Shown: positions 14,770-39,096 of the stretch, in pieces
Position numbering within the stretch: the first letter of the stretch is position 1
Layout of the letters: the number at the start of each line of letters is the position of its first letter
Assembly: GCA_023819145.1 (NCBI GenBank)
Contig: JAMWCW010000001.1
Span: 66,400 to 130,399 of the forward strand
DNA length: 64,000 nucleotides
Source of the DNA: Candidatus Omnitrophota bacterium
Lineage (GTDB): Bacteria > Omnitrophota > Gorgyraeia > DTHP01
Reading direction: 5' to 3'
Position numbers and translations under genes: made by a program
Notes under the pieces: generated by a model
The model's database searches: none
Seen by the model: the letters and a program-made list of their open reading frames with translations, nothing else
What the model was told of the DNA's origin: nothing

Positions 14770-14876
14770 TTTTTGTTTGTTTTCTTCTAAATAAAGGGGA
14801 CACTTACTACCGACTCTTCATTGGTTGTAAGAAAGTAAAAGATATTAAACTTGAATTCCGAGGAGGTATTATATAA

Positions 14877-16064: not shown

Positions 16065-16083
16065 AAAAAGGGGGAGATAAATA

Positions 16084-18948: not shown

Positions 18949-18977
18949 TTGACGATAAGAGAAAGATGTGATATAAT
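18949..18977 (+). promoter_or_regulatory. promoter TTGACG-N17-TATAAT upstream of the 1378-aa gene
   Basis: TTGACG at 18949-18954, a 17-nt spacer ending in tgtga, TATAAT at 18972-18977. Confidence 0.55.
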
Positions 18978-19001: not shown

Positions 19002-22000
19002 ATGAATAAAATAATAAAAATGATAAATATGGAAAAGAAGAGAAAATATATTCTTATCTTTTTGGGACTATTTTTGCTTATTAGTGCCTATGTAGAGGCA
19101 AAGGTGCGTACTCAAGTAATTCGCAATAGCCCCGTCCCGGAAAGAAATGTGGGAATTATTCCTGAGGCGCGTTCGGTAGAAGACTGGGCACGGGTGAGAA
19201 CTCAGGTTATAAAAGAAACAGAAAGGAGAAACCGTCAAATAGAGACCAGCCAGAATCTTCCCGATAAAATGGAAGATAGCCGGAGAGAGACAGAAGAGGA
19301 ACGCCTCAAATCCGCTTACAAAATAGAAAAAGATGCTCGGGAGATGAAACAAAAAATAGAGCAGGCTTCTCCCAATGAGGTGGTAGGAGAAAATCCCGAT
19401 GGGACAAAATGGTATCAATACTCAGGAAGATTTGACATCTTCAAGAACTGGATAAAAAACAAACTCAAAGAACTTGGCCTCTTGGATAAATGGAAGGGTG
19501 AAAGTTTTGAGGAATTAGTTCAAAAATATGGTAAAACCAATTTTGACCTCACCTTCAACAAAAAATCTTGGTCTTATTTTGGTAAGCGCTCCTCGACTCT
19601 GCAAACCACAGAATTTCAATTTAGTTTAACCAATCCCGAAGATAATTTTGAAAAATATATTCAGACGCGCTCGCGTCAATTAATCTGGGATAGCGCCAAT
19701 AATCGCGAGGCAGAAATTGTGCAACATACTATAACCGATGAGATAGAATGGGCAGGTAAGTTCTATGGCACGCCGGGAAAAACCGAACAAGGAAGGCAGA
19801 TGCTTTCTTCTCGCCAGAGAACTTGGGATGAGACCAGGGGAACTTATTCTGAGGTAAACCAGAGAAATGTCTATGAAGGGAATTTCCATATGCCCATTAA
19901 GACCATCCGCAAGGTCTTTGAATCGGGCTACGATACTAAAGGCAATTACTATGAACGCCGATACGAGATGACCCGTGAGAATATTGAATGGGCGTGGGTT
20001 GTTTCAAGTGACCCAATTTCTGGCGGAAGTTATGAAACAAAGAGCTTTGACCAGACGATGATTGATTATTCCACGCCTGATAAAAAGACAATTTCCCACC
20101 ATGAGTTTACTTATACTGATGATGGAGTTCCGGAAAGTCAATTGATTGTTAGCCGAGAAGTTGGTTTAGGGCTAAATCATATTTCAGTAAGTTTAGAAAG
20201 ATATCTTGACTACTACAAAGATGGTTCTTTGCGCCAAGGACTGAGTCTTGATCTCACTGGTGATTTTCCTGACGTATATACCGCCGTAAAAGAAGGAAGA
20301 ACTTTACAGAATTTAATCAATAATAAAGAAACAAAGTCGCAAATCGAAGCACAGTTGGGACGCAGTTTAAACTTGAACAATCCTCAAGATTTAAAAATCT
20401 ATACCGCTTATCTGAGGGAAGGATTGGGGGAAACAGCAAGAAAAATCAGTTTGAGTTTTGCCGAGAAGAAACACAATGACAAAGCATTCCTTGCCTGGGA
20501 AAAAGAGACAGTTGCCATTGAAGGAAAAGATGAAAATGGGAGCCTGATTAGTTCTAGCAGTGAAATAGAAAAAACTTATACCCAGTTCTTACCCTTTGGT
20601 CAACCCACAGAGATTGAGCAACTGATAAGAAGCGAAGCCACACCAAATGTAGAAACAAAATTAAAGATTTCTTTAAAATACAACAAGTATTGTCAGGTAA
20701 CTGAACAGAGAACCGAAACGCGAGAAACAAGCCTTGATGGCAAACTTAATAAACACACGATAAGCATAAAAGATAAAATTGTTTACAATGGTTTAGGACA
20801 GGAAATTTCCTATCGTGAGCGAGAAGAAGAATATGATATAGATGGAAAGCGCATTGGCAATCGTGAAACTTTAGTAAAAAATATTACCTATAATGAAGAT
20901 GGCTTGCAGACCGGTTACGAGATGCAGAGCATAACCAGAGGAATTGATACTCATGATGGAAGTATTTTTGAGATAATTACTGAAACAAAAGTGCGCGATA
21001 TCCGATATAATGAATTGGATATGCGTATATCCTGGAAGGAGATAAGTATAGATTTAAGCAGAAGCCCGGGATTAATTAGTGAGAGAATGTATCAGGTAAA
21101 GGCAATAGATGAATTTGGAAGAATTACGGAGATAGATATAAAAGAACACACTTATGGCACTGCTTCCGATGGAACCTCTCTAAATACTGAACGCACCATT
21201 AACCGCAAGATAAAATACAACTCTTTAGGTCAGGAAGAAGAGGCAATTGAGGAGGTAATTGAGAAGGCAAAGACCACTATCTCAACCATTAAATATGCCT
21301 ATGACCAGTATGGGAGAATTTCGCGCGAAGAAAGAAAAGTGCATGTAACGGGGAAAGATGGAGATAGCGAATTGGACTATACTTATACTCTATTGCGCTA
21401 TGGATTTGAGTACAATGATGCAGGACTTCTACAGAGATATAAGGCTAAAATCCGGAATGAATCTACAGCCGATATAGAAATAACTCAGGAGGTAGAGATT
21501 GGCTATGACAGTCTGGGAAGAGTAGATTATCAGAAGACTCAAGTCTGGGAAGATACGCGAAGCGGAGATAAGGCCTTACACAAATACACACTTACCGTAA
21601 GGGAAAACATTACCTATAATGAATTAGGATTAGAGACAGCTTATACTGAAACAGAGGAGGAATTTGATGAAGATGGAAAACGCATTGGCAATCGTAAGGT
21701 TAAGGTAAGTAACATTACTTATAATGAAGATGGTTTGCAGACTGGTTATGACATGGCGGTAATAGTAGAAGGGACTGATACCCATGACGGAAGTAGTTTT
21801 GAAACCTTTACCGAGATTAAAGTGCGCGATATTCGTTACAACAATTTAGGCATCCGCATTAGTTGGAGAGAAACCACCATAGATACAAGTAGGAGTCCAG
21901 GATTAACTACCGAAAGAAAATACGCGGTTACAGAGATAGATAGGTTTGGTAGACCTATAGAGCTTATAATCAATGAGCATGCTTATGGCTCTGCTTCTGA

Positions 22001-23138
22001 CGGGACAAGTTTAGATACCTTCCGCAAGATTACACGCCAGATAACCTACAATTCTTTAGGTCAGGAAGAGGAAATTACTGAAACCGTAGAAGAAGGGGCA
22101 AAGAAAACCACTTCCAAGATTAAGTACGAATACGATGAATGTGGCAGGATTAAATATGAAGAAAGAAATATTCATGTAGAGGGCGAAGAAGAGGGGGTTG
22201 AGTTGGATTATATTTCTACAATAAGGCGTTATGGATTTAAATACAATGATGCAGGGCTTGTACAGGGCTATACGGCAGAAATCTGGAACGAGTCCAGTCC
22301 CGACTTAGAAATAAAGCAGGAGGTAGAATTTGGCTATGACAGTCTGGGAAGAATAGACTATCAACGAAGCGAAACCTGGGAAAAGGGAATAAGTAAAAAG
22401 CGCGATAAACATGGTGAACCTACAGGCGAGGAAGAAGAGGTTGAACGGCATACAATTTCTGAGAAATATGATATCCAATATAATGAATTGGGCTTGGAAA
22501 CTTATTATAAAACCGATAGAAAAGAATACGAGGATGGAGAGTTAATCCGCGATGTTACCGAGACCACTTCGGGAATAAGGTATGATAGTAAGGGAAGAAT
22601 GACTGAATACACCACCCATAGAACTGGTCAAGAGAGATTCCTTGAAGACAGTGGAGAATATGGGGAATTAAAGAGTGTAAATATTACTACCCATATTTAC
22701 AACATTACCTATGTTGATGGTCTGGATTTAAGAAAATCCTGGAGAGAAGAAATTTCTGGTTATATAGGGGGACAGGAATTTAAGGCAAGCACCCGTCAAT
22801 ATGAAATCTTAGAATTTGACCGCTTTGGAGAAGTGGTAGATATAAATATTGAAGGAGATGGAGTGGAGGAGGAAAATTCTGCTCCTCAGATTGATACGCG
22901 GGGAACAACTTCTGGCCCAGAAGTTAATCAGACCACCAGACCTTACTCTCCGACAGGTTCAATAAAGACAACAAGTGTTCGTCGGGGACCAGTAAGAGGT
23001 TTAGGAGTGCGCGGAAAAAGTAGAACTTATGCAAAAAGACCTTCCGGAATAAGTCTTTTGAGTAGTGAATCCAGTCAGCGTAAGAAATTAGAAGAGGAAG
23101 CAGAATATATTACGCCAGATAAAGAAGAAGAAAAATAG
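19002..23138 (+). CDS. secreted YD/Rhs-type repeat protein, 1378 aa
   Basis: The signal peptide is ILIFLGLFLLISAYVEA/KV. YD-like motifs recur (ITYNEDGLQTGY, IKYAYDQYGRI, IGYDSLGRVDY, ITYNELGLETAY). The true start may be ATG 19029. Confidence 0.7.
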   Translation: MNKIIKMINMEKKRKYILIFLGLFLLISAYVEAKVRTQVIRNSPVPERNVGIIPEARSVEDWARVRTQVIKETERRNRQIETSQNLPDKMEDSRRETEEERLKSAYKIEKDAREMKQKIEQASPNEVVGENPDGTKWYQYSGRFDIFKNWIKNKLKELGLLDKWKGESFEELVQKYGKTNFDLTFNKKSWSYFGKRSSTLQTTEFQFSLTNPEDNFEKYIQTRSRQLIWDSANNREAEIVQHTITDEIEWAGKFYGTPGKTEQGRQMLSSRQRTWDETRGTYSEVNQRNVYEGNFHMPIKTIRKVFESGYDTKGNYYERRYEMTRENIEWAWVVSSDPISGGSYETKSFDQTMIDYSTPDKKTISHHEFTYTDDGVPESQLIVSREVGLGLNHISVSLERYLDYYKDGSLRQGLSLDLTGDFPDVYTAVKEGRTLQNLINNKETKSQIEAQLGRSLNLNNPQDLKIYTAYLREGLGETARKISLSFAEKKHNDKAFLAWEKETVAIEGKDENGSLISSSSEIEKTYTQFLPFGQPTEIEQLIRSEATPNVETKLKISLKYNKYCQVTEQRTETRETSLDGKLNKHTISIKDKIVYNGLGQEISYREREEEYDIDGKRIGNRETLVKNITYNEDGLQTGYEMQSITRGIDTHDGSIFEIITETKVRDIRYNELDMRISWKEISIDLSRSPGLISERMYQVKAIDEFGRITEIDIKEHTYGTASDGTSLNTERTINRKIKYNSLGQEEEAIEEVIEKAKTTISTIKYAYDQYGRISREERKVHVTGKDGDSELDYTYTLLRYGFEYNDAGLLQRYKAKIRNESTADIEITQEVEIGYDSLGRVDYQKTQVWEDTRSGDKALHKYTLTVRENITYNELGLETAYTETEEEFDEDGKRIGNRKVKVSNITYNEDGLQTGYDMAVIVEGTDTHDGSSFETFTEIKVRDIRYNNLGIRISWRETTIDTSRSPGLTTERKYAVTEIDRFGRPIELIINEHAYGSASDGTSLDTFRKITRQITYNSLGQEEEITETVEEGAKKTTSKIKYEYDECGRIKYEERNIHVEGEEEGVELDYISTIRRYGFKYNDAGLVQGYTAEIWNESSPDLEIKQEVEFGYDSLGRIDYQRSETWEKGISKKRDKHGEPTGEEEEVERHTISEKYDIQYNELGLETYYKTDRKEYEDGELIRDVTETTSGIRYDSKGRMTEYTTHRTGQERFLEDSGEYGELKSVNITTHIYNITYVDGLDLRKSWREEISGYIGGQEFKASTRQYEILEFDRFGEVVDINIEGDGVEEENSAPQIDTRGTTSGPEVNQTTRPYSPTGSIKTTSVRRGPVRGLGVRGKSRTYAKRPSGISLLSSESSQRKKLEEEAEYITPDKEEEK
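20778..22472 (+). repeat. in-frame tandem duplication inside the YD protein gene: an 831-nt unit (20778-21608), a second unit of 864 nt (21609-22472), and a decayed third copy at about 22473-22860
   Basis: gatggaaaRcgcattggcaatcgt and ataatgaagatggYttgcagacYggttaYgaSatg recur at 20841 and 21672, an offset of 831 nt. The protein units align over about 277 aa. Confidence 0.8.
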
Positions 23139-23395
23139 AAAAAAAATTACGGAGGATAACAAAAATCTTTCATTTTAAGTAATTGTAATTAAATAGTTTA
23201 AAAATTAATTTTATAAGCATGTAACTTAAGTTTACAATTATTAAACATTTTAGGGAGGAGAAAAAAGAGAGATAAAAAATGTAAATTTAATTATATTAAT
23301 TACTTATAAATGACGATGATTTTAGAGGAAAATTGGCATTAAACTTGCTTATATAAAGATGAAAAATTAAAATTTTGAAAAAAGGAGGGTAAAAA

Positions 23396-26300
23396 ATGAA
23401 AAAGACAAGATTTTTACTAAACCGGGCCGGGGGAATTTTAATACTTTTCTTAATTTTGGCTTTTACAAAGCCGGGAGAGGGATTATTTTTTACTGGTGAT
23501 GACCCTACTCAATACCATATGAGTACTGGATGCGGGATGTATGGTAATGGTTGTAATGCTTTTGGGGATCAAGAACGGCAAACTCCAGGCTTACTGAGGC
23601 AAATGAGTTCGTCACCGGCGTCTATTCAATTTAAGGACGGAATTCCAGTGACAGGGGATTCAGTGAGGTGGTCTCTTTTCGATCTGGATAATGATGGTAA
23701 TGTTGATTGTTATATAGATGAAAGTGGAAATAGATATTTAAAAACTATAACCTCAGATGGCATAATAACAGGTTATATTTTAGCAAAAAATCTTGAAAAT
23801 GGAGATTTAGATGTTCAAGTATATGGATATACTCAAACTTCAGGTTATTTTCCTATAATTCCTATAGAACCACTTGATCACACAGAACAGAATACTCAGG
23901 TAGTTGAAACACAATACCGTTTAGTGGCACATTTTAAAGTAGACCAAGCCGCTGGGCTTAATTCTTTAATAAAAGCTATTTTAGATGATACTCGCCTGCA
24001 ATCATTCCTTCAAAAATTTGATCCCAATATGAATAGTATGCTTAATGTGGGTGGCCAACAACTGAAGTTAGTTGAAAGTTTTACATATAACGATACAGAC
24101 TCTGAATGGAATAAAAATGACCAGGAGGAAAAATATTACTCCTCTATAAATGGATATTTAAAAAGGGAGGTAATTTCTGGAAAGGAATATTATTATGTCT
24201 ATAATTCCGACTATACCTTAGCTGCGCGCTATACAAAAGATACTAGTGGTGATATCACAAGCTTGACATTTATTACTCCTTCTGGAGGAGCTTTTGAGCG
24301 AGGTAAGTTAATTAGTGGGACTGAATATGAATTATCCGGGGCTTCCTTGGGGTATCTGAAGGGCTTATCGGAACTCTCGCTAAATATAAATAATATAGGT
24401 TCTTTAATGGAAAAATCTGCAATAATAGCGGGAACCTCATGGCTTAAGTTAGGCGAAAACCACTATTTTCAGCTTAAAAAAGGAACAATTGAGCAGGTAG
24501 TAACTGTAACTGTAGCAGACGATGGAAAATCTTCTTCTTTAACTTTGCAAAGGCTCAAATTGGAAGATGATAAATTGGTAGTAGTAAATGGTCAGTCAAT
24601 AACTGTTTCCAACGCGCTTTTAACTGGCAAGTTGCCAAGCGGATACTTAGATTCCTCAATTACTTCCCCTAAAGTCTTAGACCTTATTTTAAAAGGAGCC
24701 TCCATAGATTACACTCATCAGAGAATTTATTTTGATTATACAGGAAAGACTTATGCTTATGATGTTACTGGAGAAGGCTTACAGTATTATTATGTTTATT
24801 ATATGGGCGGAGGAAATACATTACCATTATTACAAATTTATGGTCCTGATACTAATATAACAACTGAAAACCCTGATTTAACTTTAACTGTGCCACAAGA
24901 ATTAAAAATCACTAATTTTACTTTTAATGTTAAAGGAACTAGCGCTACATTATCTTTCCAAGCAGATGGTAAAGAATACACATATAACCTTCCTACTAGT
25001 AAAAATGGTTCTTTTACCTTGAGTATTGATCCCCAAGCCACTGGTGCAGGGGTAATTGCACCTACTATTAAAATACTACCACCCGCATTAAGCGAGGAGC
25101 AAAAAAGATGGATTGCTAGTATTTTGGGTCTAGAAGACGATCCGGGTGGTCGAACAGCCGTACAACAATTGGATAATTTATTGGGAGATTCCCAAAATTA
25201 TTTTGTAACTGGTAATTATTTTGGGATTCAATCAGGAGAGAGTATTTTTATATTTAATACTTCCTCACTAAGTGCAGGTAGTAGATATCTTAAATTTGAT
25301 GGTAAAAATCTAATAATTAATGAGGGTACTACAACTATAACTATAGGAGATTTCGCTAAAGTTTTAAAGAGTCTAGGATTCTCTGCTTGGCTGGATGCTT
25401 TTAAATCTATGGAGGAAGATTCTCTGAGGACCCTTTTTGGACTAAATCCGAGCAATTCAGCCAATTTCACACTTGCCTTTGAGAAGATTATTACTGAGGC
25501 GCAGAAAGAGTTTTATAATTTCTCGTTTGAGAAAGACACAAGTGGTAGTAATTATTCGCCTAGGGGATATGCTAAGGCTATGTTGGATAATTCCCGATCT
25601 GTTGTTGTTGTTGAGTTTTATATTAGTGATGGGGATAGTTTCACCAAAGTTTTAGGATTTGATAGACCTACATTACTGCAAATATTAGATAGATCAGAAA
25701 CCTTTGAAGGCTTGTATGAAAAAGCTAAGGGATTTGTCAGGAATATTAGTTATGTAAAAAGGTTAGATGGAACTTATGTTTGGGTATGTAGTATAGGTAA
25801 TAAGTTTGTTCAATTTTATTCTATTGGAGGAGGAAGTGAATGGTGGGCATTGGCTGTTGATGCTACTGGTGATGTTACTGTATATGATAGCGGATGGGAG
25901 ATAAAATATACAATTGCTAAAATAGAGTTAGAATCGTCACCATCACCAAGCGTTGATTTAGTAAAAAGCCTAATTTTTGATGAGCAAACATTGCATCTTC
26001 TTCGGTTAAGTATAGAGCAAAGAGGAGACGGTGGTGTAACAGGTGTAACAATCCAAAGAAACAAAATAGAAGTGTGGGAACTGAAAAAAGCTTCGGCGAA
26101 TAGTAATGCGTTAAAGAGGATAGAAAAATTTACTTTGCTTGGAGAGGAATCTGTGGTAGCAGGAAGGGCGACCCCACTTGATCCAGAGCCAGTTATTGAA
26201 TTCGGCAGTAGAAAAATAAAGGAAATCCAATTTACCAATTTTGCGGGGATGGTAACCTTCGCTCGAGGAATTAGTTTTAAGACTCAGGGTGATAAAAGTT

Positions 26301-29300
26301 ATCTGATTTTAGGAGGAAAAATTTATGAGCTTTCTTTAGCAGAAGATGGATCAATCTTTACAATTAGCCAAACTCCTATTATTACGATTGAGCAACAAAC
26401 TTGGGAAGCAATAAGAACACTTATTGCTTACGAGCGGACAAATACTGGAAGTGTAACTGGCCCGAGTGCAATTGGCTGGGCTGATATTAGTATAGTAATA
26501 GAAAAAGAGGACAAAGTGTACTTTGAGGTGCCAGTGAAATCAATTGATGAGGGAAGATATGTATTGAGATTTGATAGTAAGGGACAATTAATTAAGAGAG
26601 ATGGTGCAGTATTGAGTTTTACTCCCACAGATTCAGATGAATCCCAAAAAGCAGAAAGCTTTAAAACATTTTTGCAAAATAATGTAGGCAATCTTCCTTT
26701 ATCTGCAGCAGGCAAAGCCTATGAGAGATTTTGTTCACAGTTGGCAATTGCTGGTGTGGCTAAAGTAGATTGGGAGATATTTCTTCGTAGCTGGAATGAA
26801 GGGGCAAAAACTCTTGAAGGCTTTAGTGACCCCGGATGGGGTGGGGGACTTAGTAGGAGCGAACTTATCGCGGCATTGGAGCTTAGTGATGAGCAGAAAC
26901 AACAGCAGTTGCGTAGAATTGAGGCTACAGATATAAATGGGTTTAATAAATATCTTTATATTGATGACAAGGGAAATATAGTTTATGTAGAAGAACTACC
27001 TGATCCCTCGAAAGGAAAATATAAAGGATATTTATTAAGGTATCAGTGGAATGATTCTGCTAATCCTCCGGAAGCGAATATTTCTGGAGTATTGGTAGGA
27101 GCTATGCAGCGTTCAACTTCACAAAATGTTTTATCACAAAATGTTTTATATGGAATAGTAGCAGAGGTTGATAATGGTGGGGGTTATGTAAAATTGAATG
27201 ATAAAGGATTTGAATTAAATTTAAATATTATATTTAAAGGTAATAACAAGGGGTATGAGAATCTTTTTGATTTTGAAACATACAAAATCGAAATCAAGGT
27301 TAGTAGAGTGGATAATACATTGACGCAGGTAGAAACAACGAATTGGGCTAATTCTAATGCGCAAAGATGGTATACGAGCTCTACCATTACTACAGTAGTA
27401 GGGCTACTGGAGGATGGGAAATTTGAAAAAAAGCGAGAAGAAAGGGTATTAAAAAATAATGAGGGGGAGCAAGAAACAATCACTTTTCCTGAATTTGATG
27501 GAAAAGGCAACCCCACTAAAAAACAGGTGCATTCTTTGAGGAAAGTCGATATTGAGGGTTGGGAATGGAGAGAGGATAATTATACAGAGACAGGAACTCT
27601 TAACAGTAATCAACAATGGGTGAGGAAAGGTTATGAACCTAATACTCAAAGGACAATTAAGCTAAGTAGAGGAAATGGGGATTATCTACAGCAGGAGTAC
27701 TCTATAGATGGAAATGGAAAAGCAATCAGATGTGTTATTGAGGAAAAAAGAGGTTCGGTAACTGCCAAAGTAGAAGAAGAAGTAGTAGGTGAAGGGGATT
27801 TATTATTCTTAGGAGAGAATACACAACTTACCTTGAATATTAATGGAGATAGGATAGATCCCAAAACAGGACAAACGGTAAGTGTAAGTGGCAATAATGT
27901 AGTAAGGTCTGTTTATGTATTTAAGGACGAAGAGGTGGCAGCACTTAAACAGCAGGGCTTAACCATAAGGGCTGGTATTCCTTATATCCTTGATAAATAT
28001 GAAGATGGTTCGTTTAGAATATATACCGCATTTGTAGAACAAACATATCTTGATGCACAAGGAAAACCTAAAGCGTATTATGTGGCTGGAGAATATGTAG
28101 GAACCCTTGGTTCAAAAAAAGCCAGTGACGGTGCCAGTGGCGGAGGCGGTGGAGGAGGTGGAGGAGGTGGAGGAGGTGGACCGGCAGGAAGTGACAAAAT
28201 TCCTCCTTCACAAATAGCTAATCAGGATACAGGAGAGATTGTTGGTGGTATGGAAGGGCAATTAGATGGTTTTGTGAAAAGAAGCTATCCTGAGAGAGTA
28301 GAGGAATTAGCTCATACTTATCGGGCAATGGGTCCGGGAATGAAGGAGAGAGCACTTTCTATAAACGATAGAGATAGTGCCAGAATATATCTATTGGGGA
28401 GATTTCTTTCCAGAGATAAAATTAAACAAGTTCTTTCGGTTCTTAAAAATAAGAATCTTTCTATTGAGGAAAAACGCGCTTTACTTAAGAAACTGGGGCT
28501 TTCGGATAAATTGCTTGACTTACTCCTTAATGGTGATGAAGAAGCATTAATTAAAGAAGCTCAAAAAATGCTCCTTAAGGATTTCGGGCTTTCTGATGAG
28601 GAGATTGAAGAATTCTTCAAGAGCAGTGATAAAAAAGGATATTTGCAGAAGAAAGGACTTTCTGATGAACGCATTGAGGCGGTAATGGAGATAACAGATT
28701 TAGAGAAGGCTCAAGAGGCAATCCTTAATCAGGAGGCAGTTTTGGAAGAGTTGCTCAGTGAGGAAGAGAAAGCACTTATGGAGGAGCTTTTTGCTTTGTT
28801 AGAGGAATATACCGGATTTATTAGTGATGAAGAGTATGCGGAATTAAGGGAGATTTTGGTAGATTTGGGGCTTTCTGAGGAGACCATAGATGATTTAATA
28901 GGTAAAAATGCGGATGAGTTTATGAATAGTCAGTTGCGGAATTGGGCAATGATGGATGAGAAAAATATTCTTGAATTGGCAAGGATGCTTTTCTTTGATG
29001 AAGACTTAAAGTTAGATAAATGGACTGCGGAGTTTATTGTAAAAGGTGATGAGTTTATGGTAAATGAGCTCTTAAGTAAAATTAGACAAGCAGTAAAAGA
29101 GTATCTTGAAGAGTATTGGGGTAAAGAGGTCAGTGAAGAAGAAGTTAAAGGTTTGGATGAGGCGACTAGAGAGAAAATTGCCGATGCTTTACTGCAAGCG
29201 ATAGGTAGAGGAGGACTTACGCTGGAAAATGCTTCTAAAAAAGTAAAGGAAATTCTTGCAGAGATTATCCCTTTGAAGGAAGCGAAAGAGGAGAAGAGCC

Positions 29301-29443
29301 CTATTCAGCCAGCACCTTCTCCGGAACCGTTACAGCCACAATCTCTTGCTGCGGTAAGTATTCAGGGTAACTGGAGGAGCAAAAATAATGATGATGATAT
29401 TCCGCGGTTGTTAAGAGAAAAAAATGAACTCAGAAGCAGATAG
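23396..29443 (+). CDS. giant secreted protein, 2015 aa: signal peptide, about 1580 aa of beta-rich region, a Gly14 hinge, then an acidic helical C-terminal domain with GLSD/E repeats
   Basis: The RBS aaggaggg precedes ATG 23396. The N-terminus is GGILILFLILAFT. I recognise no catalytic motif. Confidence 0.7.
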   Translation: MKKTRFLLNRAGGILILFLILAFTKPGEGLFFTGDDPTQYHMSTGCGMYGNGCNAFGDQERQTPGLLRQMSSSPASIQFKDGIPVTGDSVRWSLFDLDNDGNVDCYIDESGNRYLKTITSDGIITGYILAKNLENGDLDVQVYGYTQTSGYFPIIPIEPLDHTEQNTQVVETQYRLVAHFKVDQAAGLNSLIKAILDDTRLQSFLQKFDPNMNSMLNVGGQQLKLVESFTYNDTDSEWNKNDQEEKYYSSINGYLKREVISGKEYYYVYNSDYTLAARYTKDTSGDITSLTFITPSGGAFERGKLISGTEYELSGASLGYLKGLSELSLNINNIGSLMEKSAIIAGTSWLKLGENHYFQLKKGTIEQVVTVTVADDGKSSSLTLQRLKLEDDKLVVVNGQSITVSNALLTGKLPSGYLDSSITSPKVLDLILKGASIDYTHQRIYFDYTGKTYAYDVTGEGLQYYYVYYMGGGNTLPLLQIYGPDTNITTENPDLTLTVPQELKITNFTFNVKGTSATLSFQADGKEYTYNLPTSKNGSFTLSIDPQATGAGVIAPTIKILPPALSEEQKRWIASILGLEDDPGGRTAVQQLDNLLGDSQNYFVTGNYFGIQSGESIFIFNTSSLSAGSRYLKFDGKNLIINEGTTTITIGDFAKVLKSLGFSAWLDAFKSMEEDSLRTLFGLNPSNSANFTLAFEKIITEAQKEFYNFSFEKDTSGSNYSPRGYAKAMLDNSRSVVVVEFYISDGDSFTKVLGFDRPTLLQILDRSETFEGLYEKAKGFVRNISYVKRLDGTYVWVCSIGNKFVQFYSIGGGSEWWALAVDATGDVTVYDSGWEIKYTIAKIELESSPSPSVDLVKSLIFDEQTLHLLRLSIEQRGDGGVTGVTIQRNKIEVWELKKASANSNALKRIEKFTLLGEESVVAGRATPLDPEPVIEFGSRKIKEIQFTNFAGMVTFARGISFKTQGDKSYLILGGKIYELSLAEDGSIFTISQTPIITIEQQTWEAIRTLIAYERTNTGSVTGPSAIGWADISIVIEKEDKVYFEVPVKSIDEGRYVLRFDSKGQLIKRDGAVLSFTPTDSDESQKAESFKTFLQNNVGNLPLSAAGKAYERFCSQLAIAGVAKVDWEIFLRSWNEGAKTLEGFSDPGWGGGLSRSELIAALELSDEQKQQQLRRIEATDINGFNKYLYIDDKGNIVYVEELPDPSKGKYKGYLLRYQWNDSANPPEANISGVLVGAMQRSTSQNVLSQNVLYGIVAEVDNGGGYVKLNDKGFELNLNIIFKGNNKGYENLFDFETYKIEIKVSRVDNTLTQVETTNWANSNAQRWYTSSTITTVVGLLEDGKFEKKREERVLKNNEGEQETITFPEFDGKGNPTKKQVHSLRKVDIEGWEWREDNYTETGTLNSNQQWVRKGYEPNTQRTIKLSRGNGDYLQQEYSIDGNGKAIRCVIEEKRGSVTAKVEEEVVGEGDLLFLGENTQLTLNINGDRIDPKTGQTVSVSGNNVVRSVYVFKDEEVAALKQQGLTIRAGIPYILDKYEDGSFRIYTAFVEQTYLDAQGKPKAYYVAGEYVGTLGSKKASDGASGGGGGGGGGGGGGGPAGSDKIPPSQIANQDTGEIVGGMEGQLDGFVKRSYPERVEELAHTYRAMGPGMKERALSINDRDSARIYLLGRFLSRDKIKQVLSVLKNKNLSIEEKRALLKKLGLSDKLLDLLLNGDEEALIKEAQKMLLKDFGLSDEEIEEFFKSSDKKGYLQKKGLSDERIEAVMEITDLEKAQEAILNQEAVLEELLSEEEKALMEELFALLEEYTGFISDEEYAELREILVDLGLSEETIDDLIGKNADEFMNSQLRNWAMMDEKNILELARMLFFDEDLKLDKWTAEFIVKGDEFMVNELLSKIRQAVKEYLEEYWGKEVSEEEVKGLDEATREKIADALLQAIGRGGLTLENASKKVKEILAEIIPLKEAKEEKSPIQPAPSPEPLQPQSLAAVSIQGNWRSKNNDDDIPRLLREKNELRSR
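28139..28180 (+). repeat. coding GGN microsatellite encoding Gly14, with (ggtggagga) repeated about three times
   Basis: The sequence reads ggc gga ggc ggt gga gga ggt gga gga ggt gga gga ggt gga. Confidence 0.9.
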
Positions 29444-29474
29444 GTTAAACAAAAGTAATTAACCCCAAACCCCT

Positions 29475-29500
29475 GCCCACCGCGTAGGTGGGCATTTTTT
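29475..29500 (+). terminator. intrinsic terminator after the 2015-aa gene, formed by the left REP of pair 2
   Basis: The stem pairs GCCCACC (29475-29481) with GGTGGGC (29487-29493). The loop is GCGTA, followed by A and TTTTTT. Confidence 0.6.
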
Positions 29501-29501
29501 C

Positions 29502-29530
29502 TTGACATAAGCTTATAAATTTGCTATATT
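29502..29530 (+). promoter_or_regulatory. promoter TTGACA-N17-TATATT for the transposase gene, located between the two REPs of pair 2
   Basis: TTGACA at 29502-29507 and TATATT at 29525-29530. Confidence 0.55.
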
Positions 29531-29622: not shown

Positions 29623-30276
29623 ATGAGAAAGAATTTTCTGGCAGTAGGAGAAATTTATCACGTGTTGAATAAAAGTATTGCGGGTTTTCAGATTTTTAAC
29701 GATGAAGATGAATATCAGCGAATGGCTGGGCTTTTTGCCTATTATCAAAAAGAGAATCCTCCAGTTAAGTTCTCTAAGTATTTAAATTCCAATAAAAAAG
29801 GTTCTGAGGGGGAGAATACAGGAAATAAATTAGTGGAAATTATCGCCTATTGTCTTATGCCTACCCATCTTCATCTCTTATTGAGACAGATGAAAGAAGA
29901 AGGGATTTCTCTTTTTATGGGAAATGTTTTAAATAGCTACACCCGCTATTTTAATACCCGACATAAGCGCAAAGGACCTCTCTGGGAGGGTAGATTTAAA
30001 AGAATTCAAGTAAAAACCGAGGAAAATTTATTGCACCTTACCCGCTATATCCATCTTAATCCGGTTACAGCGTATCTGGTGAACAAGCCCGAGGATTGGC
30101 TTTTTTCTTCTTATCGAGAGTATTTAGGTCAGGTTGATGGTAAGGAGAAAATTTGCAATTTTGAAGATTCTTTAGAGATAGGCCCTGACTATAAAGAATT
30201 TGTGGAAGATAGAATTTCTTACCAGAGAGAACTTGCTCAGATTAAAGATTTAATAGTTGAAAACCTCTCCACCTAA
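29623..30276 (+). CDS. REP-associated tyrosine transposase (RayT, IS200/IS605 TnpA-like Y1 HUH enzyme)
   Basis: The HUH motif is in CLMPTHLHLLLRQ. The Tyr helix is LLHLTRYIHLNPV. At 217 aa the size is typical. Confidence 0.8.
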   Translation: MRKNFLAVGEIYHVLNKSIAGFQIFNDEDEYQRMAGLFAYYQKENPPVKFSKYLNSNKKGSEGENTGNKLVEIIAYCLMPTHLHLLLRQMKEEGISLFMGNVLNSYTRYFNTRHKRKGPLWEGRFKRIQVKTEENLLHLTRYIHLNPVTAYLVNKPEDWLFSSYREYLGQVDGKEKICNFEDSLEIGPDYKEFVEDRISYQRELAQIKDLIVENLST

Positions 30277-30377: not shown

Positions 30378-30439
30378 TTTATAACGGTAGGAAAAGGAAG
30401 GAAGAAGAGGAAAGGTAAGTGAGAGGAGGAAAGAGGGAG

Positions 30440-30838
30440 ATGAAAAAAAGAATTCTGTTTTTGGGGATGGTTGGAGTATTATTGAGTTTTGTTTCTTGTG
30501 GAAAGGCAAAAGAGGAAGTTTACGAATCAGAGACAAAGGCAAGCGAAGAGGTGAAAATAGCTATGGTAGAGGAGGGAGAAATGGCCCAGAAACCTGAACT
30601 AAAATATGTGGAAGGAGAGCTTTTAGTAAAGTTTAAACCCGAAGTTTCTGCAGAAGAGATAATTACGATCCTCAAAGACGAATATCAATGCGAGATTATT
30701 GATATTATAAAAGGATTAGATGTTTACAGGATAAAAATGCCCAAAGGAAAAACTGTCCCCGAGATGGTGGAGTTATTGAGTAAAGATGAACGGGTGAAAT
30801 ACGCCGAACCTAACTATATCTATCGCTTACAGATGTAG
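30440..30838 (+). CDS. lipoprotein consisting only of a subtilase propeptide (I9/fervidolysin-type prodomain)-like domain
   Basis: The RBS gaggagg precedes ATG 30440. The lipobox is LLSFVSCG. GELLVKFKPEVSAEE...VKYAEPNYIYRL matches the S8 N-terminal prodomain pattern, and no protease domain follows. Confidence 0.55.
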   Translation: MKKRILFLGMVGVLLSFVSCGKAKEEVYESETKASEEVKIAMVEEGEMAQKPELKYVEGELLVKFKPEVSAEEIITILKDEYQCEIIDIIKGLDVYRIKMPKGKTVPEMVELLSKDERVKYAEPNYIYRLQM

Positions 30839-30895
30839 AGGTAAAACATGAGACGCAGTATAATCGCGAGAGATAAAGCGGAATTAGTGCGCAAA

Positions 30896-31612
30896 ATGAG
30901 GCTAAAATATTTATTTTCTTTTGGCGTAATCAGCGGGTTTGTTTTTTACTCTGGCTTGGCTTTCGCAGAGGAAAAAGCAGAAAAGCTTGAGGATTACAGC
31001 AAGTACGGTTATACCCTTAAATATAAAGACCCCAAGGTCTATACTACGCAACCGGGAGAAAAAGAATCTCCCTACCATCAGAAAGAACCCCAGCTTCCTC
31101 CCGCTTTAGAAGGCAGAACCAAATCGCCCCAATGGTCTAAACCAGAAAAGTTGCAAGAGGTTAAACCGGAAGAACTCTACATGCCTCCCTTGGAAGCAAT
31201 TTTAGGCTCATTACCACCTCCTCGCGAAGAGGAAAGCGTAGAAGAAAAGATTTTAACTAAAGAAGGGGAGATTTCCTTAGAGGCTTGGGGAGAAAAAGTA
31301 GAGTTAATGATTGAGGAAGTTCTGGGGAAAGAAGCTGAGGTGAAATTGGTAAGAGAAGGATTTTCTTTTACTACGCCGGTTACTCCCGTAGAGGAAGAAG
31401 AAGAAAAAGAAGTCCAAGAAAAACCTTCTACCTCCCTTTTCTCTGATACTTGGGAGATGCTTATCCAAGAAGGAAGGGTTACCCTTAAACCTTTAGGGAA
31501 AGTCTCACCCGAAGATTTAGAGAAAATTGCTGCTTATTTAGTAGACCTCTTAGGAAGGGGCGGAGAAATAACTAAGATAAGTCCGGAAGGAATTGAGGTT
31601 GAACTAAAATAG
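30896..31612 (+). CDS. secreted Glu/Pro-rich hypothetical protein
   Basis: The signal peptide is MRLKYLFSFGVISGFVFYSGLAFA/EE. The track start at 30848 is also possible. Confidence 0.5.
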   Translation: MRLKYLFSFGVISGFVFYSGLAFAEEKAEKLEDYSKYGYTLKYKDPKVYTTQPGEKESPYHQKEPQLPPALEGRTKSPQWSKPEKLQEVKPEELYMPPLEAILGSLPPPREEESVEEKILTKEGEISLEAWGEKVELMIEEVLGKEAEVKLVREGFSFTTPVTPVEEEEEKEVQEKPSTSLFSDTWEMLIQEGRVTLKPLGKVSPEDLEKIAAYLVDLLGRGGEITKISPEGIEVELK

Positions 31613-31762
31613 ATACTGTATCAAACCATATCAAGAAACTTTCTCGCTTATTTATTCCCAAATCTCACGAGAAAAGATAAACCGTATCAGAGCCGTGATA
31701 CGGTATTTAATTTCCTAAATTACCGAGCCACTCTCCATAAAGCAAGGGTATCAACTGTATCA
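31612..31762. promoter_or_regulatory. cluster of GATAC/GTATC half-sites upstream of the efflux operon
   Basis: GATACtGTATC is at 31612-31622. ACCGTATCA-gagccg-TGATACGGT is at 31681-31704. GGGTATCAACTGTATCA is at 31746-31762. Confidence 0.35.
31681..31715 (+). terminator. possible intrinsic terminator: a 9-bp perfect stem followed by a T-rich tail
   Basis: ACCGTATCA and TGATACGGT form the stem with a 6-nt loop, followed by atttaatttcc. It could instead be an operator. Confidence 0.3.
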
Positions 31763-31838
31763 TAATTCTTTAAAAACCCTTGCCAAAATCCCTGCCGAAA
31801 AAGATAAGAAAAAAATATAACCAAAATGATTTTTTTTC

Positions 31839-31867
31839 TTGACAAAAGTTCTTAATTATGATAAGGT
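31839..31867 (+). promoter_or_regulatory. possible promoter TTGACA-N17-TAAGGT with TGa extended -10, for the efflux operon
   Basis: TTGACA at 31839-31844. The track's TTG start codon is the -35 element. Confidence 0.3.
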
Positions 31868-31922
31868 TAAAACCCTGATACTGTTTGATATAGTTAAACC
31901 CCCTTTAAAACAGGAGGGAGAA

Positions 31923-34109: not shown

Positions 34110-34142
34110 GTAAAATCAAAAATTAGCAAAAGGAGGAGAAAA

Positions 34143-35411
34143 ATGGCAAAAATGTCTCCTAAGAATTTAAGGATTGTAATTTTGATACTTATGGTGGTGT
34201 TAGTGATGGTTTTAGCGAAGAAATTAGCCAAGCCACCTCCGCAACCCCCAAAAGGGAGGACTACTGCTACTAAGGTTAGTCCCAAACTTACGCGGGGCGC
34301 AGAAGTGAAAAAGGAAGAAAAAAAGAAGAAAAAAGAGGAAAAAGCACCTCAGATTCCTTCTGCCTTGGAACAATTGCTGATGGGCACGGGTGAGGCAGAG
34401 AAAATTCCCGTTAAAGTTTATAAAATCTCCCGCACCGATTTTCAGGATGAACTGCCCATTGTGGGAACAGTAAGGAGTATTCCGGAGATAGACCTGAAGT
34501 TTGAGATAAATGGCAGAGTGGCAGAAATCCGGTTTAAGGAAGGAGAGCGGGTGAAAAAAGGAGAGCTTATTGCCCGGTTAGACCAAAAAGATGCCCAGTT
34601 AGAACTCTCTTGGGCAGAGGCAAAATATAATGCGGCGTTAGCAGAGGCAGAAGCAGTAAAGAAACGTGCAGAGACTATTGAGAAATTGTATGAAGTAGGG
34701 GCAATTGTAGAAGCACGGGTGGAAGAAGCAAGAGCAGAAGTCAAAGCCTCAGAAGAAAGAGCCAAAGTAGCAAAGGCAGAAGTAGAATCGGCTAAATCAA
34801 GACTGGAAAAGACTAATCTCTATGCTTCTCAAAATGGGATTATGGGCCCCCGGGACCTAGATGTAGGAGAGTTTGTTACCCCCAATGAACGTTTGGGAAC
34901 GCTTTTTAGTGAAGAGAATACTTTTATTGAAGTGGGGGTGATTGAAAAAGATATAGGTAAAGTTCAGACGGGTCAGAGGGTCATTGTAAATGTTGACGCT
35001 TATCCCTATACTGATTTCTATGGAGTAGTAGAAAATATCTTTCCTAACTTAGAAGCACGTACCCGCACCTTGAATGTACGCATCAGACTTATAGAAACCA
35101 AAACGACGCTTCTTCCAGGAATGTTTGCCCGGACAAGGATTGTGGTCTATACGAAAAAGAATGCCTTGGTTGTTCCCAGCACCGCACTGTCAGTAGAAGG
35201 GAGAAGATATTTTGTTCCCGTTGTTAAGGATAATCGGGTAAGGAATAAAGAAGTGTTTACCGAGTATGCCACGTTAGACTATGCAGTGATTGCCCGTGGA
35301 TTGGAAGAAGGGGAATTGGTTATTGTTGAGACGCCGGGATTAAAGAAATTAAAAGACGGAACTCCTGTGGAGATTACCGAGACCCAAGAGAAATTGGCCT
35401 CGGGTAAATAG
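34143..35411 (+). CDS. RND efflux periplasmic adaptor (membrane fusion protein, HlyD family)
   Basis: It has an N-terminal TM, a coiled-coil hairpin (AEAKYNAALAEAEAVKKRAE...) and lipoyl/beta-barrel-like flanks. It sits between the TolC and RND genes. Confidence 0.75.
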   Translation: MAKMSPKNLRIVILILMVVLVMVLAKKLAKPPPQPPKGRTTATKVSPKLTRGAEVKKEEKKKKKEEKAPQIPSALEQLLMGTGEAEKIPVKVYKISRTDFQDELPIVGTVRSIPEIDLKFEINGRVAEIRFKEGERVKKGELIARLDQKDAQLELSWAEAKYNAALAEAEAVKKRAETIEKLYEVGAIVEARVEEARAEVKASEERAKVAKAEVESAKSRLEKTNLYASQNGIMGPRDLDVGEFVTPNERLGTLFSEENTFIEVGVIEKDIGKVQTGQRVIVNVDAYPYTDFYGVVENIFPNLEARTRTLNVRIRLIETKTTLLPGMFARTRIVVYTKKNALVVPSTALSVEGRRYFVPVVKDNRVRNKEVFTEYATLDYAVIARGLEEGELVIVETPGLKKLKDGTPVEITETQEKLASGK

Positions 35412-35470
35412 TATTTTTGGTTAAATAGTTAAATTGGTTAGATGGGTAAATAGTTAAAAGGTTAAATAGT
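35403..35470. repeat. intergenic stutter of four GGT(T)AAATAGT words
   Basis: The words are gggtaaatagt, ggttaaatagt, gggtaaatagt and ggttaaatagt, starting near 35403, 35419, 35445 and 35460. Confidence 0.6.
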
Positions 35471-35495
35471 CAATTAGTTGATTTAATTTGCGAAG

Positions 35496-39026: not shown

Positions 39027-39096
39027 ATTCGAAGCACGAAATCCGAAGCTTGAAACAGGAAATTTAAAACTAGAAACTCTCGTTCCTTTGGGGCGA

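Follow-up and report, generated by a model that had tools for sequence, protein, structure and literature searches.

Sequence comparisons indicate that the 2015-aa protein described here belongs to a family in which head and tail types have been exchanged independently among lineages, at the Gly-rich linker every time. The gene lies in the window, the whole 64,000-nucleotide stretch of Candidatus Omnitrophota DNA that was analysed (Table 1). Head and tail swapping at the linker suggests a putative variable cell-surface or host-contact protein. The preferred explanation, with a probability of roughly 0.55, is an exported, modular and probably envelope-docked protein, the exposed head of which is swapped by recombination.

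Table 1. Features of the gene, its product and the downstream neighbourhood, in window coordinates.
Feature	Position	Strand	Basis or remark
Ribosome-binding site AGGAGG	23383-23388	+	Read from sequence; 7 nt before ATG 23396
ORF	23396-29443	+	Single open frame, 2015 aa
Leader, aa 1-30, MKKTRFLLNRAGGILILFLILAFTKPGEG	23396-23485	+	Hydrophobicity; kept in L001, P0003, P0004
N-box, aa 45-66, GC..(6-7 aa)..NGCNAFGDQ..RQTP	23528-23593	+	Two conserved Cys
Variable centre, type A, ~1515 aa	23594-28138	+	Beta-rich, no family match
Single DxDxDGxxD loop, D96-D104, DLDNDGNVD	23681-23707	+	Read from sequence
Type A homology to P0002/P0006 centre, aa ~375-1560	24518-28075	+	hhalign, BLASTP
Pre-linker module, aa ~1329-1545	27380-28030	+	Predicted long beta-hairpin stack
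Gly14 linker, aa 1582-1595, (GGAGGAGGT)x4.3	28139-28180	+	Head/tail junction
Tail start, low confidence, likely disordered	28181-28342	+	pLDDT <50, tail residues 1-46
Acidic all-alpha tail core, aa ~1650-1957, type alpha	28343-29266	+	
Four h-x-x-h-G-L-S-[DE]-E helix-turn-helix units	28496-28878	+	Motif and tail model
Best-conserved tail block, aa 1838-1903, NADEFMNSQLRNWAMMDEKNILELAR...DKWTAEFIVKGDEFMVNELLSKIRQAVKEY	28907-29104	+	Family alignment
Short basic C-terminal helix, DDIPRLLREKNELRSR	29396-29440	+	Predicted helix 406-419 of tail
Terminator-like hairpin and T-run	29474-29504	+	Eight pairs (six G-C), then TTTTTT; directly 3′ of stop
Conserved downstream neighbourhood	30419-42295	+	Pfam, NCBIfam; order kept across lineages
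Standalone subtilisin-propeptide (Fervidolysin_NPro-like) lipoprotein	30419-30838	+	Pfam/NCBIfam
~254-aa protein (the ~240-aa protein of the cluster), no assigned identity	30848-31612	+	
TolC-like outer-membrane protein, AMIN-like N-terminal extension	31839-34109	+	Pfam/NCBIfam
Membrane-fusion protein	34143-35411	+	Pfam/NCBIfam
RND pumps	35496-39026 and 39197-42295	+	Pfam/NCBIfam

When 1.84 billion protein representatives were searched exhaustively with the tail (phmmer), five relatives emerged, and a sixth came from a metagenome scan. The family is small, unannotated and confined to Omnitrophota-like bacteria (nanobacteria), and in all relatives the tail is C-terminal and follows a Gly/Ser-rich linker. 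It comprises seven members in total, six of them full-length and all derived from metagenomes, a size and origin that count against the preferred explanation. Each full-length member starts with a leader, continues with a large beta-rich centre and a Gly-rich linker, and ends in an acidic all-alpha tail of ~400 aa, in which helix-turn-helix 'GLSDEE' units accompany a conserved core; there is one gene copy per locus. The initial annotation had proposed a head, a flexible linker and a helical tail, and this layout recurs in six of six full-length members and agrees with the all-alpha tail model.

Four centre types were distinguished: type A in the window protein and P0002 (99.7%), type B in L001 and P0003 (100%), type C in P0004 and type D in P0005. 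Tails fall into types alpha to delta, and the combinations observed are A+alpha, B+alpha, B+beta and C+beta. Between the window and L001, DNA similarity running in from the upstream gene ends at 23481 and returns exactly at 28139; between L001 and L003, it stops where the Gly tract ends. L002 and L003 are 94% identical to approximately codon 21, have centres (4.4 and 2.5 kb) that are unrelated to each other, and are 92% identical from the linker on. Breakpoints thus lie inside linker-coding DNA in all three of the informative pairwise DNA comparisons. Tail identity is 66% for window-L001, 32% for window-L003, 31% for L001-L003 and 91% for L002-L003, while the TolC-like, membrane-fusion and propeptide lipoprotein gene products of the same genomes are 71-84% identical in the three window/L001/L003 pairs; for flanking genes in general, identity is 76-86%. 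As judged from dN/dS estimates of ~0.11 (0.39 in the close pair), the tail is shown to be under purifying selection.

The 2015-aa ORF and its N-terminal hydrophobic leader, both described in the initial annotation, are borne out by ORF reading and hydropathy. Residues 6-24 form the sole strongly hydrophobic 19-mer of the whole protein (Kyte-Doolittle 2.04; runner-up 1.16), and residues 1-30 fit a predicted Sec signal peptide or signal anchor. A hydrophobic leader is present in every full-length member, including P0002 after upstream extension of its start, and from the alignments the leader forms the 5′ boundary of the swapped region. The N-box is kept in the window protein, L001 and L003 (81% DNA identity between window positions 23530-23588 and L003) and is missing from L002.

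It is proposed that the leader takes the protein over the inner membrane and that the tail docks it to a cell-envelope partner, or assembles it there. The poly-Gly segment would act as a flexible tether, and the centre as an outward-facing interaction surface for host, prey or substrate contact, or as a phage or grazer target. Homologous recombination at crossover sites in leader and linker/tail DNA would keep the centre diverse, and slippage of the GGN repeat would tune tether length and nothing more.

The centre is rich in Gly (9.4%), Ser (8.0%), Thr (7.5%), Asn (5.5%) and Tyr (4.9%). An earlier statement that it holds no recognisable motif agrees with scans of the protein against Pfam, NCBIfam, PHROGs and PADLOC, none of which matched a family. 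A word-index homology search with the centre returned no relatives, and self-BLAST found no internal repeats. The centre is unrelated to those of L001, P0003, P0004 and P0005. Its type A match was obtained with hhalign (99.7% probability, E 2e-25) and BLASTP (30% identity over 771 columns, E 4e-64), the latter continuing through the linker into the tail. DxDxDGxxD is a calcium-binding-type motif, and from this motif the single loop of the window protein may bind calcium; similar DGNG loops occur in P0002. The structural model of the centre has a mean pLDDT of 40 and reaches 70-87 solely in the pre-linker module, which is partly common to P0002 and P0004 as conserved alignment blocks. Foldseek searches with this module gave weak Rhs/teneurin-type matches, which are a lead only. 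Because the centre is so poorly modelled, an 'adhesin-like' label rests on composition and analogy.

Divergent centres might also be expected of an unexposed structural protein of the periplasm or envelope, in which the centre has drifted under weakened constraint, with gene conversion now and then, rather than under selection for diversity. The leader is of Sec type only, and Pfam and NCBIfam scans recognised no outer-membrane translocation or sorting signal, as would suit such a protein. However, the centres are unrelated rather than simply diverged, vary in length (~650-1500 aa) and show a pattern of sharing at odds with phylogeny; the breakpoints are sharp and recurrent; the neighbouring genes show ordinary conservation; and an Fn3/Ig/PKD surface-type protein adjoins the family gene in L001. 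An unexposed structural role is rather unlikely.

The tail contains 14.5% Glu, 14.0% Leu and 9.3% Lys, with a net charge of -30. A conserved (I/M/V)-P-P motif comes just after the linker, and four members share ATTCCTCCT. Modelling gives an all-alpha tail, with pLDDT ~90 across residues 55-360 (~300 residues); comparison of this confident model with solved folds gave no match, and no tail relatives of known function were found by structure or sequence. Four GLS[DE] words, at aa 1701, 1731, 1754 and 1825, each lie in the loop immediately preceding a predicted helix, and a count of four was reached in none of 20000 shuffles. The corresponding DNA word GGRCTTTCKGA lies at 28496, 28586, 28655 and 28868, against a chance expectation of ~0.11 across the whole window; one further, unrelated match lies on the minus strand at 33518. 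The initial annotation counted four repeats correctly but placed the DNA words 2-3 nt too early, and the Lys or Leu that it gave before GLS[DE] needs widening to Lys, Leu or Phe, since one unit reads D-F-G-L-S-D-E. The units are conserved in L001 and number 2-5 in the other full-length members, with ~9 in P0002. Eight tail columns are invariant across all seven members, three of which (A283, E284 and I286) lie within the best-conserved block and belong to the motif (K/S/E)-(W/F)-x-A-E-x-I. The basic C-terminal helix comes after a Pro-rich spacer; the last 35 aa of the protein have a pI of 10, and a ...DDILRLLEER...-like end is also present in P0003, P0004, P0001 and L001.

The tail repeat, (F/Y)L.KKGL(S/T)DEEI..h, looks like one half of the three-helix bundle of Pex14_N (PF04695), namely helix 2-turn-helix 3. 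Scores summed over repeats are 46 bits for P0002, 32.5 for P0005 and 11.3 for the window protein, against a cutoff of 23.2. Membership in this domain family was rejected, as only profile positions 23-45 of 46 were matched, which points to a shared capping motif.

The tails of close relatives are 32% identical as against ~80% for flanking genes, which counts against a docking tail: such divergence fits poorly with docking on a conserved partner, unless the partner co-varies. By analogy with the modularity of colicins and pyocins, or with adhesins fused to effectors in predatory or epibiotic bacteria, the tail might instead be the active module, delivered to or acting on another cell, and the centre the receptor-binding, host-range part. 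Heads and tails reassort independently, as bacteriocin modules do; the tail fold matches nothing known, which leaves room for an activity; and host-dependent lifestyles have been proposed for the phylum (PMC10066038). Nevertheless, a bacteriocin- or effector-like role is distinctly unlikely: the next gene is a transposase-like ORF or an S8 peptidase rather than a small immunity-like gene, Pfam, NCBIfam and PADLOC matched no toxin, enzyme or defence-system family, and the modelled tail has the look of a helical scaffold made of repeats rather than of a catalytic fold.

The preferred explanation, a docked protein with a swapped head, has partial parallels among known systems. Dockerin-bearing cellulosomal proteins combine a variable module, a Gly/Pro/Thr linker and a conserved C-terminal module that docks onto a cell-bound partner. 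By analogy, the window protein would share with them a signal peptide, interchangeable modules, a flexible low-complexity linker and a repeated helix-loop-helix C-terminal module. However, a dockerin spans ~70 aa compared with ~400 aa for the window tail, which has neither a dockerin Pfam match nor paired calcium-binding loops, and no cohesin-like partner for the tail was identified. Type V autotransporters and type IX cargo likewise have a Sec leader, a large variable passenger, a linker and a family-defining C-terminal domain, but that domain is a beta-barrel or beta-sandwich, whereas the window tail is acidic and all-alpha. No Pfam or NCBIfam model of either system matches.

In Clostridioides difficile slpA, Campylobacter fetus sap and the flagellin central domain, an exposed region is swapped between strains by recombination in conserved flanks. 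The resemblance, again one of analogy, would be that the swapped exposed region lies between or beside conserved parts for anchoring or assembly; in the window family, by contrast, the putative anchor is itself polymorphic. Pfam and NCBIfam scans found no SLH, S-layer or flagellin signature. The chimeric fibre proteins of Bdellovibrio bacteriovorus reportedly share a scaffold, vary in their C-terminal tips for prey recognition and occur as many paralogues per genome. They too form a modular family, in a predator (Nat Microbiol 2024, PMC10769870); the window family differs in having one copy per locus and a central variable part, and homology between the two was not detected. VARTIG proteins of Thermococcales, for which roles in conflict or self/non-self recognition have been proposed, are also large exported proteins at a conserved locus with one region replaced by inter-lineage recombination (Makarova et al. 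2021, PMC8416519). They are archaeal Ig-domain proteins with a variable C-terminus and variable downstream genes, whereas the window family has orphan domains, variation in both head and tail, and conserved downstream genes.

Omnitrophota giant ORFs exceed 20 kb and often encode many transmembrane helices; for many of the products, export or membrane anchoring is predicted, and a role in cell-cell contact has been proposed (Seymour et al. 2023, PMC10066038; West-Roberts et al. 2023, bioRxiv 10.1101/2023.11.21.568195). The window gene is likewise large, poorly annotated and poorly conserved, and comes from the same phylum. At 6 kb, with one leader, a distinct conserved tail and no sequence relationship found to those proteins, it falls outside the published >20-kb class (PMC10066038); the initial annotation had likened it to large ORFs reported in host-dependent or predatory nanobacteria.

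The terminator-like hairpin contains the palindrome CCACCGCGTAGGTGG at 29477-29491 and doubles as one arm of a REP-like doublet. The first gene downstream of family members encodes either an S8 peptidase, missing at the window, L001 and L003 loci, or a REP-associated tyrosine-transposase-like protein. The downstream gene order of the window recurs at the L001, L003, L004/L089 and L005-7 loci, and the cluster follows the gene in all five lineages with downstream sequence. Neither this cluster nor the head/tail reassortment featured in the initial annotation, which suggested a tie to the leader regulon, with just the 'YD' protein gene in between. The 'YD' reading is not supported: that neighbour matched no RHS/YD model in Pfam or NCBIfam, showed no profile similarity to the centre of the 2015-aa protein, and adjoins the gene only in the window and L001, being absent from the upstream sequence available for more distant relatives.

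A functional tie between the gene and the downstream cluster may exist, although it is weakened by the terminator and a promoter-like site between them. The protein might then be cargo or a partner of the S8 peptidase, propeptide lipoprotein, ~240-aa protein, TolC-like/AMIN, membrane-fusion and RND machinery, which would process it, with the linker as a possible site, and would also export or anchor it; such a role would be compatible with the preferred explanation. The order is kept in five lineages with tails 25-34% and flanking genes 36-55% identical, and the TolC-like protein is unusual in being extended N-terminally by ~300 aa, which match AMIN weakly. Such a role is nonetheless improbable, given the strength of the intervening hairpin and the promoter-like site, the three loci without S8 peptidase, and another Omnitrophota locus (L012), where the propeptide gene occurs but the large gene does not. 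Nor are RND systems known to export proteins.

Tandem Repeats Finder placed the linker repeat at 28142-28180 (period 9, 4.3 copies, 96% matches, unit GGAGGAGGT), in keeping with the Gly14 hinge and near-perfect 9-nt repeat noted previously. In the closest ortholog, L001, the linker is Gly16 and is built from an 18-nt unit; the remaining members have repeat-free, mixed G/S/A/N/P linkers. Neither an invariant tract nor a known adhesin or S-layer family was found. The tract had also been called slippage-prone, which suits the difference in length, but a 9-nt, in-frame unit means that slippage alters linker length alone and gives no on/off switching. On the best reading, the Gly tract serves both as flexible linker and as crossover joint, and not as a phase switch. 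A contingency gene, in which slippage would switch or markedly alter expression, could draw on the near-perfect tandem repeat and its differing length among relatives, but is highly improbable with units of 9 and 18 nt that stay in frame, a tract 4.7 kb inside the ORF and non-repetitive linkers in other members. Chimeric assembly at the low-complexity GGN tract is conceivable for a family known from metagenome assemblies throughout, yet is just as implausible, because the flanks of each contig are collinear and consistently diverged, so that an artefact would need two precise mis-joins per contig; moreover, GGN tract sequences differ among lineages, identical copies of P0005 came from 8 contigs, and of P0006 from 5, in different samples, and the combinations are seen in four independent data sets.

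The large protein comprises a leader, a long centre (the head), a glycine linker and a C-terminal tail. Its sole strongly hydrophobic stretch spans residues 6–24, so a Sec-type leader or signal anchor is predicted and other membrane segments are absent. A single DxDxDGxxD loop lies at residues 96–104, and an N-box (residues 45–66, with two Cys) is common to three members of the family described below. The Gly14 tract occupies residues 1582–1595 and is encoded by 4.3 copies of GGAGGAGGT with 96% matches. The final 420 residues are rich in Glu (14.5%), Leu (14.0%) and Lys (9.3%), with a net charge of -30 and a pI of about 4.7. They carry four GLS[DE] words, at residues 1701, 1731, 1754 and 1825, a count equalled in 0 of 20000 shuffles, and the DNA word GGRCTTTCKGA recurs where about 0.11 occurrences are expected within the window. 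The ORF, glycine tract, GLS[DE] tail and DNA word proposed in the initial annotation were all confirmed, its coordinates for the DNA word being 2–3 nt off.

Positions of the large gene, its internal features and neighbouring elements in the window
Feature	Position	Strand	Remarks
PPDK/PEP-synthase-like pair	14877-18471	+	split: PPDK_N, then PEP-utilizers
CCACCKCGTAGGTGG inverted pair	18488-18574		copies 72 nt apart
Promoter-like site	18949-18977		strong; near upstream gene
Upstream secreted protein gene	19002-23138	+	1378 aa
Internal duplication in upstream gene	20811-21553 and 21603-22382		about 780 nt
Ribosome-binding site AGGAGG	7 nt 5' of large gene ATG		
Large gene ORF	23396-29443	+	intact, 2015 aa, 6048 nt
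Gly14 tract	28139-28180		
GGRCTTTCKGA	28496, 28586, 28655, 28868		
Terminator-like hairpin	29474-29494		plus T-run; after large gene's stop codon
CCACCKCGTAGGTGG inverted pair	29477-29563		copies 72 nt apart
Promoter-like site	29502-29530		strong; 3' of the hairpin
Transposase-like ORF	29623-30276	+	IS200/Y1-type
CCACCKCGTAGGTGG inverted pair	30285-30371		copies 72 nt apart
Propeptide lipoprotein gene	30419-30838	+	Fervidolysin_NPro-like
TolC-like protein gene	31839-34109	+	756 aa
First RND permease gene	35496-39026	+	
Helix-turn-helix domain of RND permease	roughly 38840-39023		last about 60 aa, in frame

No test established membership of a named family for the large protein. Neither the whole protein nor segments of 400–880 aa gave a significant Pfam, NCBIfam, PHROGs or PADLOC match, exact look-up returned no identical entries in public collections for the window proteins, and a genome collection queried with the large protein yielded no relatives. 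Word-index searches with the full protein, a two-sequence tail alignment or the centre alone, each drawing 8000 word-sharing candidates that may have been crowded with low-complexity words, produced no relatives among the matches listed. This null result was superseded by an exhaustive phmmer search with the tail alone against 1.84 billion representative proteins, which yielded five matches: P0001 (312 aa, a fragment), P0002 (1717 aa), P0003 (1275 aa), P0004 (1935 aa) and P0005 (1071 aa). A metagenome scan added one syntenic locus, L001. P0003 belongs to a metagenome-assembled genome of Candidatus Omnitrophota, where it is entered as hypothetical, and the flanking genes of the window are 76–86% identical to those of that genome. 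A genome scan with the downstream propeptide lipoprotein found its closest matches in Omnitrophota genomes (74%, 60% and 49%) and no further members of the large-protein family. The window is accordingly assigned to an Omnitrophota bacterium. No second tail or paralogue was seen in the window or in the other loci examined.

The new family is recognised by a leader, a variable centre, a Gly-rich linker and a GLSDEE/KWTAEFIV tail, the latter captured in a profile from alignment A2. The large protein has an A2-profile tail, a Gly-rich linker preceding it and a large, leader-bearing N-terminal region. In all full-length members the leader is hydrophobic (in P0002 only once the start is moved to an in-frame upstream Met) and is followed by a centre of about 650–1500 aa and then by the C-terminal tail, the two joined through a Gly/Ser-rich linker. 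These sequence comparisons place the large protein, modular in build and predicted to be exported, in an orphan family of Omnitrophota.

Only seven members of this family are known, a caveat on the mosaic reading below. For the window compared with L001 (its closest syntenic relative), the window compared with L003 (a related locus), and L001 compared with L003, respectively, amino acid identities were 77, 84 and 78% for the TolC-like protein, 80, 79 and 76% for the membrane-fusion protein, and 71, 76 and 74% for the propeptide lipoprotein. The corresponding values for the tail were 66, 32 and 31%, and the tails of L003 and a further locus, L002, are 91% identical; the tail is itself polymorphic, which is a further caveat. 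Centre and tail types occur as A+alpha in the window, B+alpha in L001, B+beta in L003 and C+beta in L002.

DNA comparisons locate the boundaries of these modules. Similarity between the window and L001 runs from the upstream gene to position 23481, gives way to unrelated sequence, and returns exactly at 28139, the first Gly codon. L001 and L003 are similar across the centre, and their similarity ends where the Gly tract ends. L002 and L003 share 94% identity to about codon 21, have unrelated centres of 4.4 and 2.5 kb, and are 92% identical from the linker on. In all three independent comparisons, head and tail thus meet within linker DNA; at the 5′ end, the swapped region begins in the leader or just after it. 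Taken together, the alignments indicate that head and tail modules have assorted independently of each other, the joins lying at the linker. The large protein is rated a probable mosaic exported protein assembled from orphan domains.

The rival explanations weighed were that the product is a bacteriocin-like effector, a purely periplasmic protein or cargo of the neighbouring machinery, that the gene is phase-variable, and that the mosaic is an assembly artefact. The linker bears on the last two. L001 carries Gly16 at the matching site, built from an 18-nt unit where the window has a 9-nt unit, and other members carry mixed linkers such as GSGGGAGGGGGGNGGSG or GVGSGSGSSGTGNG. Given this variation among members, the linker is a conserved feature with drifting length and sequence. 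The initial annotation regarded the Gly tract as prone to slippage. The repeat is real, and tandem duplication expanded the linker in two lineages, in frame each time; a phase-variable contingency locus was rejected on the unit lengths of 9 nt (window) and 18 nt (L001), which keep the frame, and on the position of the tract deep inside the ORF. The poly-Gly tract is more likely a module boundary and crossover site than a slippage hotspot. Assembly chimerism is unlikely, as both flanks of every contig are collinear, the GGN tracts differ in sequence, and P0005 and P0006 (a further related protein) are identical on 8 and 5 contigs.

Profile comparison divides the centres into four unrelated types. 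Type A is shared by the window and P0002 (99.7% probability, with 30% identity running on into the tail) and type B by L001 and P0003 (100% probability); P0004 represents type C and P0005 type D. Self-comparison of the window centre found no internal repeats. An AlphaFold2 model of residues 375–1574 was poor (mean pLDDT 40), apart from about 215 residues (about 1329–1545) predicted as stacked long beta hairpins with pLDDT 70–87. In a Foldseek search with this model, teneurin-like and T6SS Rhs proteins ranked first, mixed with DDB1 propellers, at probabilities of at most 0.54 and TM-scores of 0.06–0.08. Because the model failed outside the 215-residue region, these matches were not counted as evidence of membership, and the possible Rhs/teneurin resemblance is a lead only. 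The centre, searched as 500-aa segments, matched no RHS/YD model (PF05593/TIGR01643-type) even at E up to 5; a loose YD-like pattern, with 5 occurrences against 1.0 expected, is a hint only.

The tail was modelled with AlphaFold2 from a six-sequence alignment (pTM 0.68). Tail residues 55–360 reached a pLDDT of about 90, and the model contains 24 helices and no strands; confidence is low in the first 46 residues and in a Pro-rich stretch at 368–404, and a short basic helix closes the protein. Each GLS[DE] word sits in a turn directly before a helix and would thus serve as the helix N-cap in one of a series of helix-turn-helix repeats. Such units number four in the window, two to five in other full-length members and about nine in P0002. 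The sole recurrent family signal in the tails is the second half of the 46-residue Pex14_N profile (PF04695). Membership of that three-helix-bundle domain was rejected for the window tail, whose match covers profile positions 26–45 and reaches 11.3 bits where the cutoff is 23.2; P0002 and P0005 pass the cutoff only through summed half-domain repeats. The likeness to Pex14_N amounts to a motif in common and does not make the tail a member of that family. Against PDB sequences, the tail matched only myosin light chains and a designed helical protein, at chance level. The tail is under purifying selection (pN 0.22 and pS 0.72 between the window and L001; dN/dS 0.39 between L002 and L003). The model suggests a new all-alpha domain, for which no structural relative was found.

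Several known classes of large or exported protein were considered and rejected. A polymorphic toxin system does not fit, as the largest variable part is the central body, not a short C-terminal tip, no toxin or immunity family is matched, and what lies downstream is an S8 peptidase or a conserved transposase-like ORF. A Type I secreted RTX adhesin, of the class with GGxGxD nonapeptide repeats, is disfavoured by the presence of a leader, the absence of a HemolysinCabind match and neighbouring transporters that are RND pumps, not ABC transporters. For a Type V autotransporter, the tail is predicted to be all-alpha and not a C-terminal beta-barrel, and an autotransporter Pfam match is absent. 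Type IX CTD, PEP-CTERM and LPXTG sorting signals gave no NCBIfam or Pfam match; unlike the hydrophobic or beta-sandwich ends of such proteins, the C-terminus is a predicted basic amphipathic helix without a hydrophobic segment. An SLH-anchored S-layer protein was rejected for want of an SLH match in Pfam or NCBIfam, and a phage, tail-fibre or defence origin because nothing was found in viral contigs, phage genomes, PHROGs, a viral structure library or PADLOC. Rfam and tRNA scans over the window were empty. The gene, at 6048 nt, also falls outside the published class of Omnitrophota giant ORFs, defined as >20 kb (PMC10066038).

In a mosaic exported protein of this kind, the tail may dock or assemble the protein in the envelope, and the head, predicted to be an exposed interaction surface, would be kept diverse by recombination. 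The Gly tract would serve both as a tether and as common sequence at which crossover can take place. By analogy, the layout may work like that of dockerin-bearing secreted proteins and of passenger-plus-C-terminal-domain secreted proteins, and the evolutionary behaviour resembles that of cassette-variable surface proteins and the archaeal VARTIG module (PMC8416519).

The locus is small and well delimited, with a recognisable signature and a conserved genomic address. Together with head/tail exchange at a fixed joint, these properties make it a tractable strain-level marker of surface diversity and a candidate determinant of partner specificity. The phylum Omnitrophota consists of nanobacteria that are abundant and uncultured, and the host-dependent or predatory lifestyle proposed for them is supported largely by pili and huge uninterpretable ORFs. 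A far-reaching proposal, improbable at roughly one chance in eight, is that the locus sets host or prey range, or self/non-self recognition, in an ultra-small and possibly epibiotic or predatory bacterium, an outward-facing head and a cell-side tail being swapped independently among lineages at the poly-Gly-coded joint and the tail plugging into an adjoining new envelope apparatus. If so, the apparatus receiving the orphan helical tail would consist of the AMIN-extended TolC-like protein, membrane-fusion protein, RND pumps, standalone subtilisin propeptide and ~240-aa protein, and the downstream cluster would give diderm cells a new way to display very large proteins at their surface. Within this enigmatic phylum, the mosaic pattern is clear and open to test, and the function of the protein is inferred.

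The large gene precedes one conserved gene set in 5/5 lineages with visible downstream sequence. The first position is taken by an S8 peptidase, except in the window group, where a REP-associated tyrosine-transposase-like ORF stands there; a standalone Fervidolysin-propeptide-like lipoprotein and a ~240-aa protein follow, then a long TolC-like protein that weakly matches AMIN, a membrane-fusion protein and RND pumps. Conservation of the standalone subtilisin-propeptide lipoprotein extends across loci of Omnitrophota. In L004, L005 and L010 (related loci) a short subtilisin-like gene comes before it, with a Pfam Peptidase_S8 match in the first two and no Pfam match in L010; the peptidase is missing from this position in the window, L001 and L003. 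The TolC-like protein is unusually long (relatives, 726–842 aa), its N-terminal extension of about 200–300 aa bearing the AMIN-domain matches. The first RND permease ends in a DeoR/HTH_24-type helix-turn-helix domain; in L003 this domain follows a stop codon as an ORF of its own (67 aa), owing either to gene fusion or to a difference in the stop codon. At 14161–17136, L001 encodes an extra 991-aa Fn3/Y_Y_Y/Ig/PKD protein, absent from the window, between the large gene and the transposase-like ORF, a further sign of a variable surface-protein island at this spot.

The upstream secreted protein, labelled 'YD' in the initial annotation, matches no RHS/YD model. A functional pairing with the large protein finds no support: the two genes adjoin only in the window and L001, the upstream protein was not in the upstream sequence of other family loci examined, and profile comparison shows no likeness between it and the centre. 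At 72% identity to its L001 ortholog, it is ordinarily conserved, unlike the adjoining large protein. No terminator was seen between the two genes.

The palindrome CCACCKCGTAGGTGG occurs in six copies in the window, with none expected by chance, forming three inverted pairs that look like REPIN doublets in sequence. Two pairs flank the transposase-like ORF (NCBIfam E 1e-18, below cutoff), and one arm also serves as the terminator of the large gene. This ORF is kept at the equivalent place in L001 and L003 and so looks domesticated, not recently mobile. The split pyruvate-phosphate-dikinase/PEP-synthase-like pair is absent at the corresponding place in L001. Across the 64 kb of the window, all plausible genes lie on the + strand; each 2-kb bin has a positive GC skew, and the GC content is about 38%.
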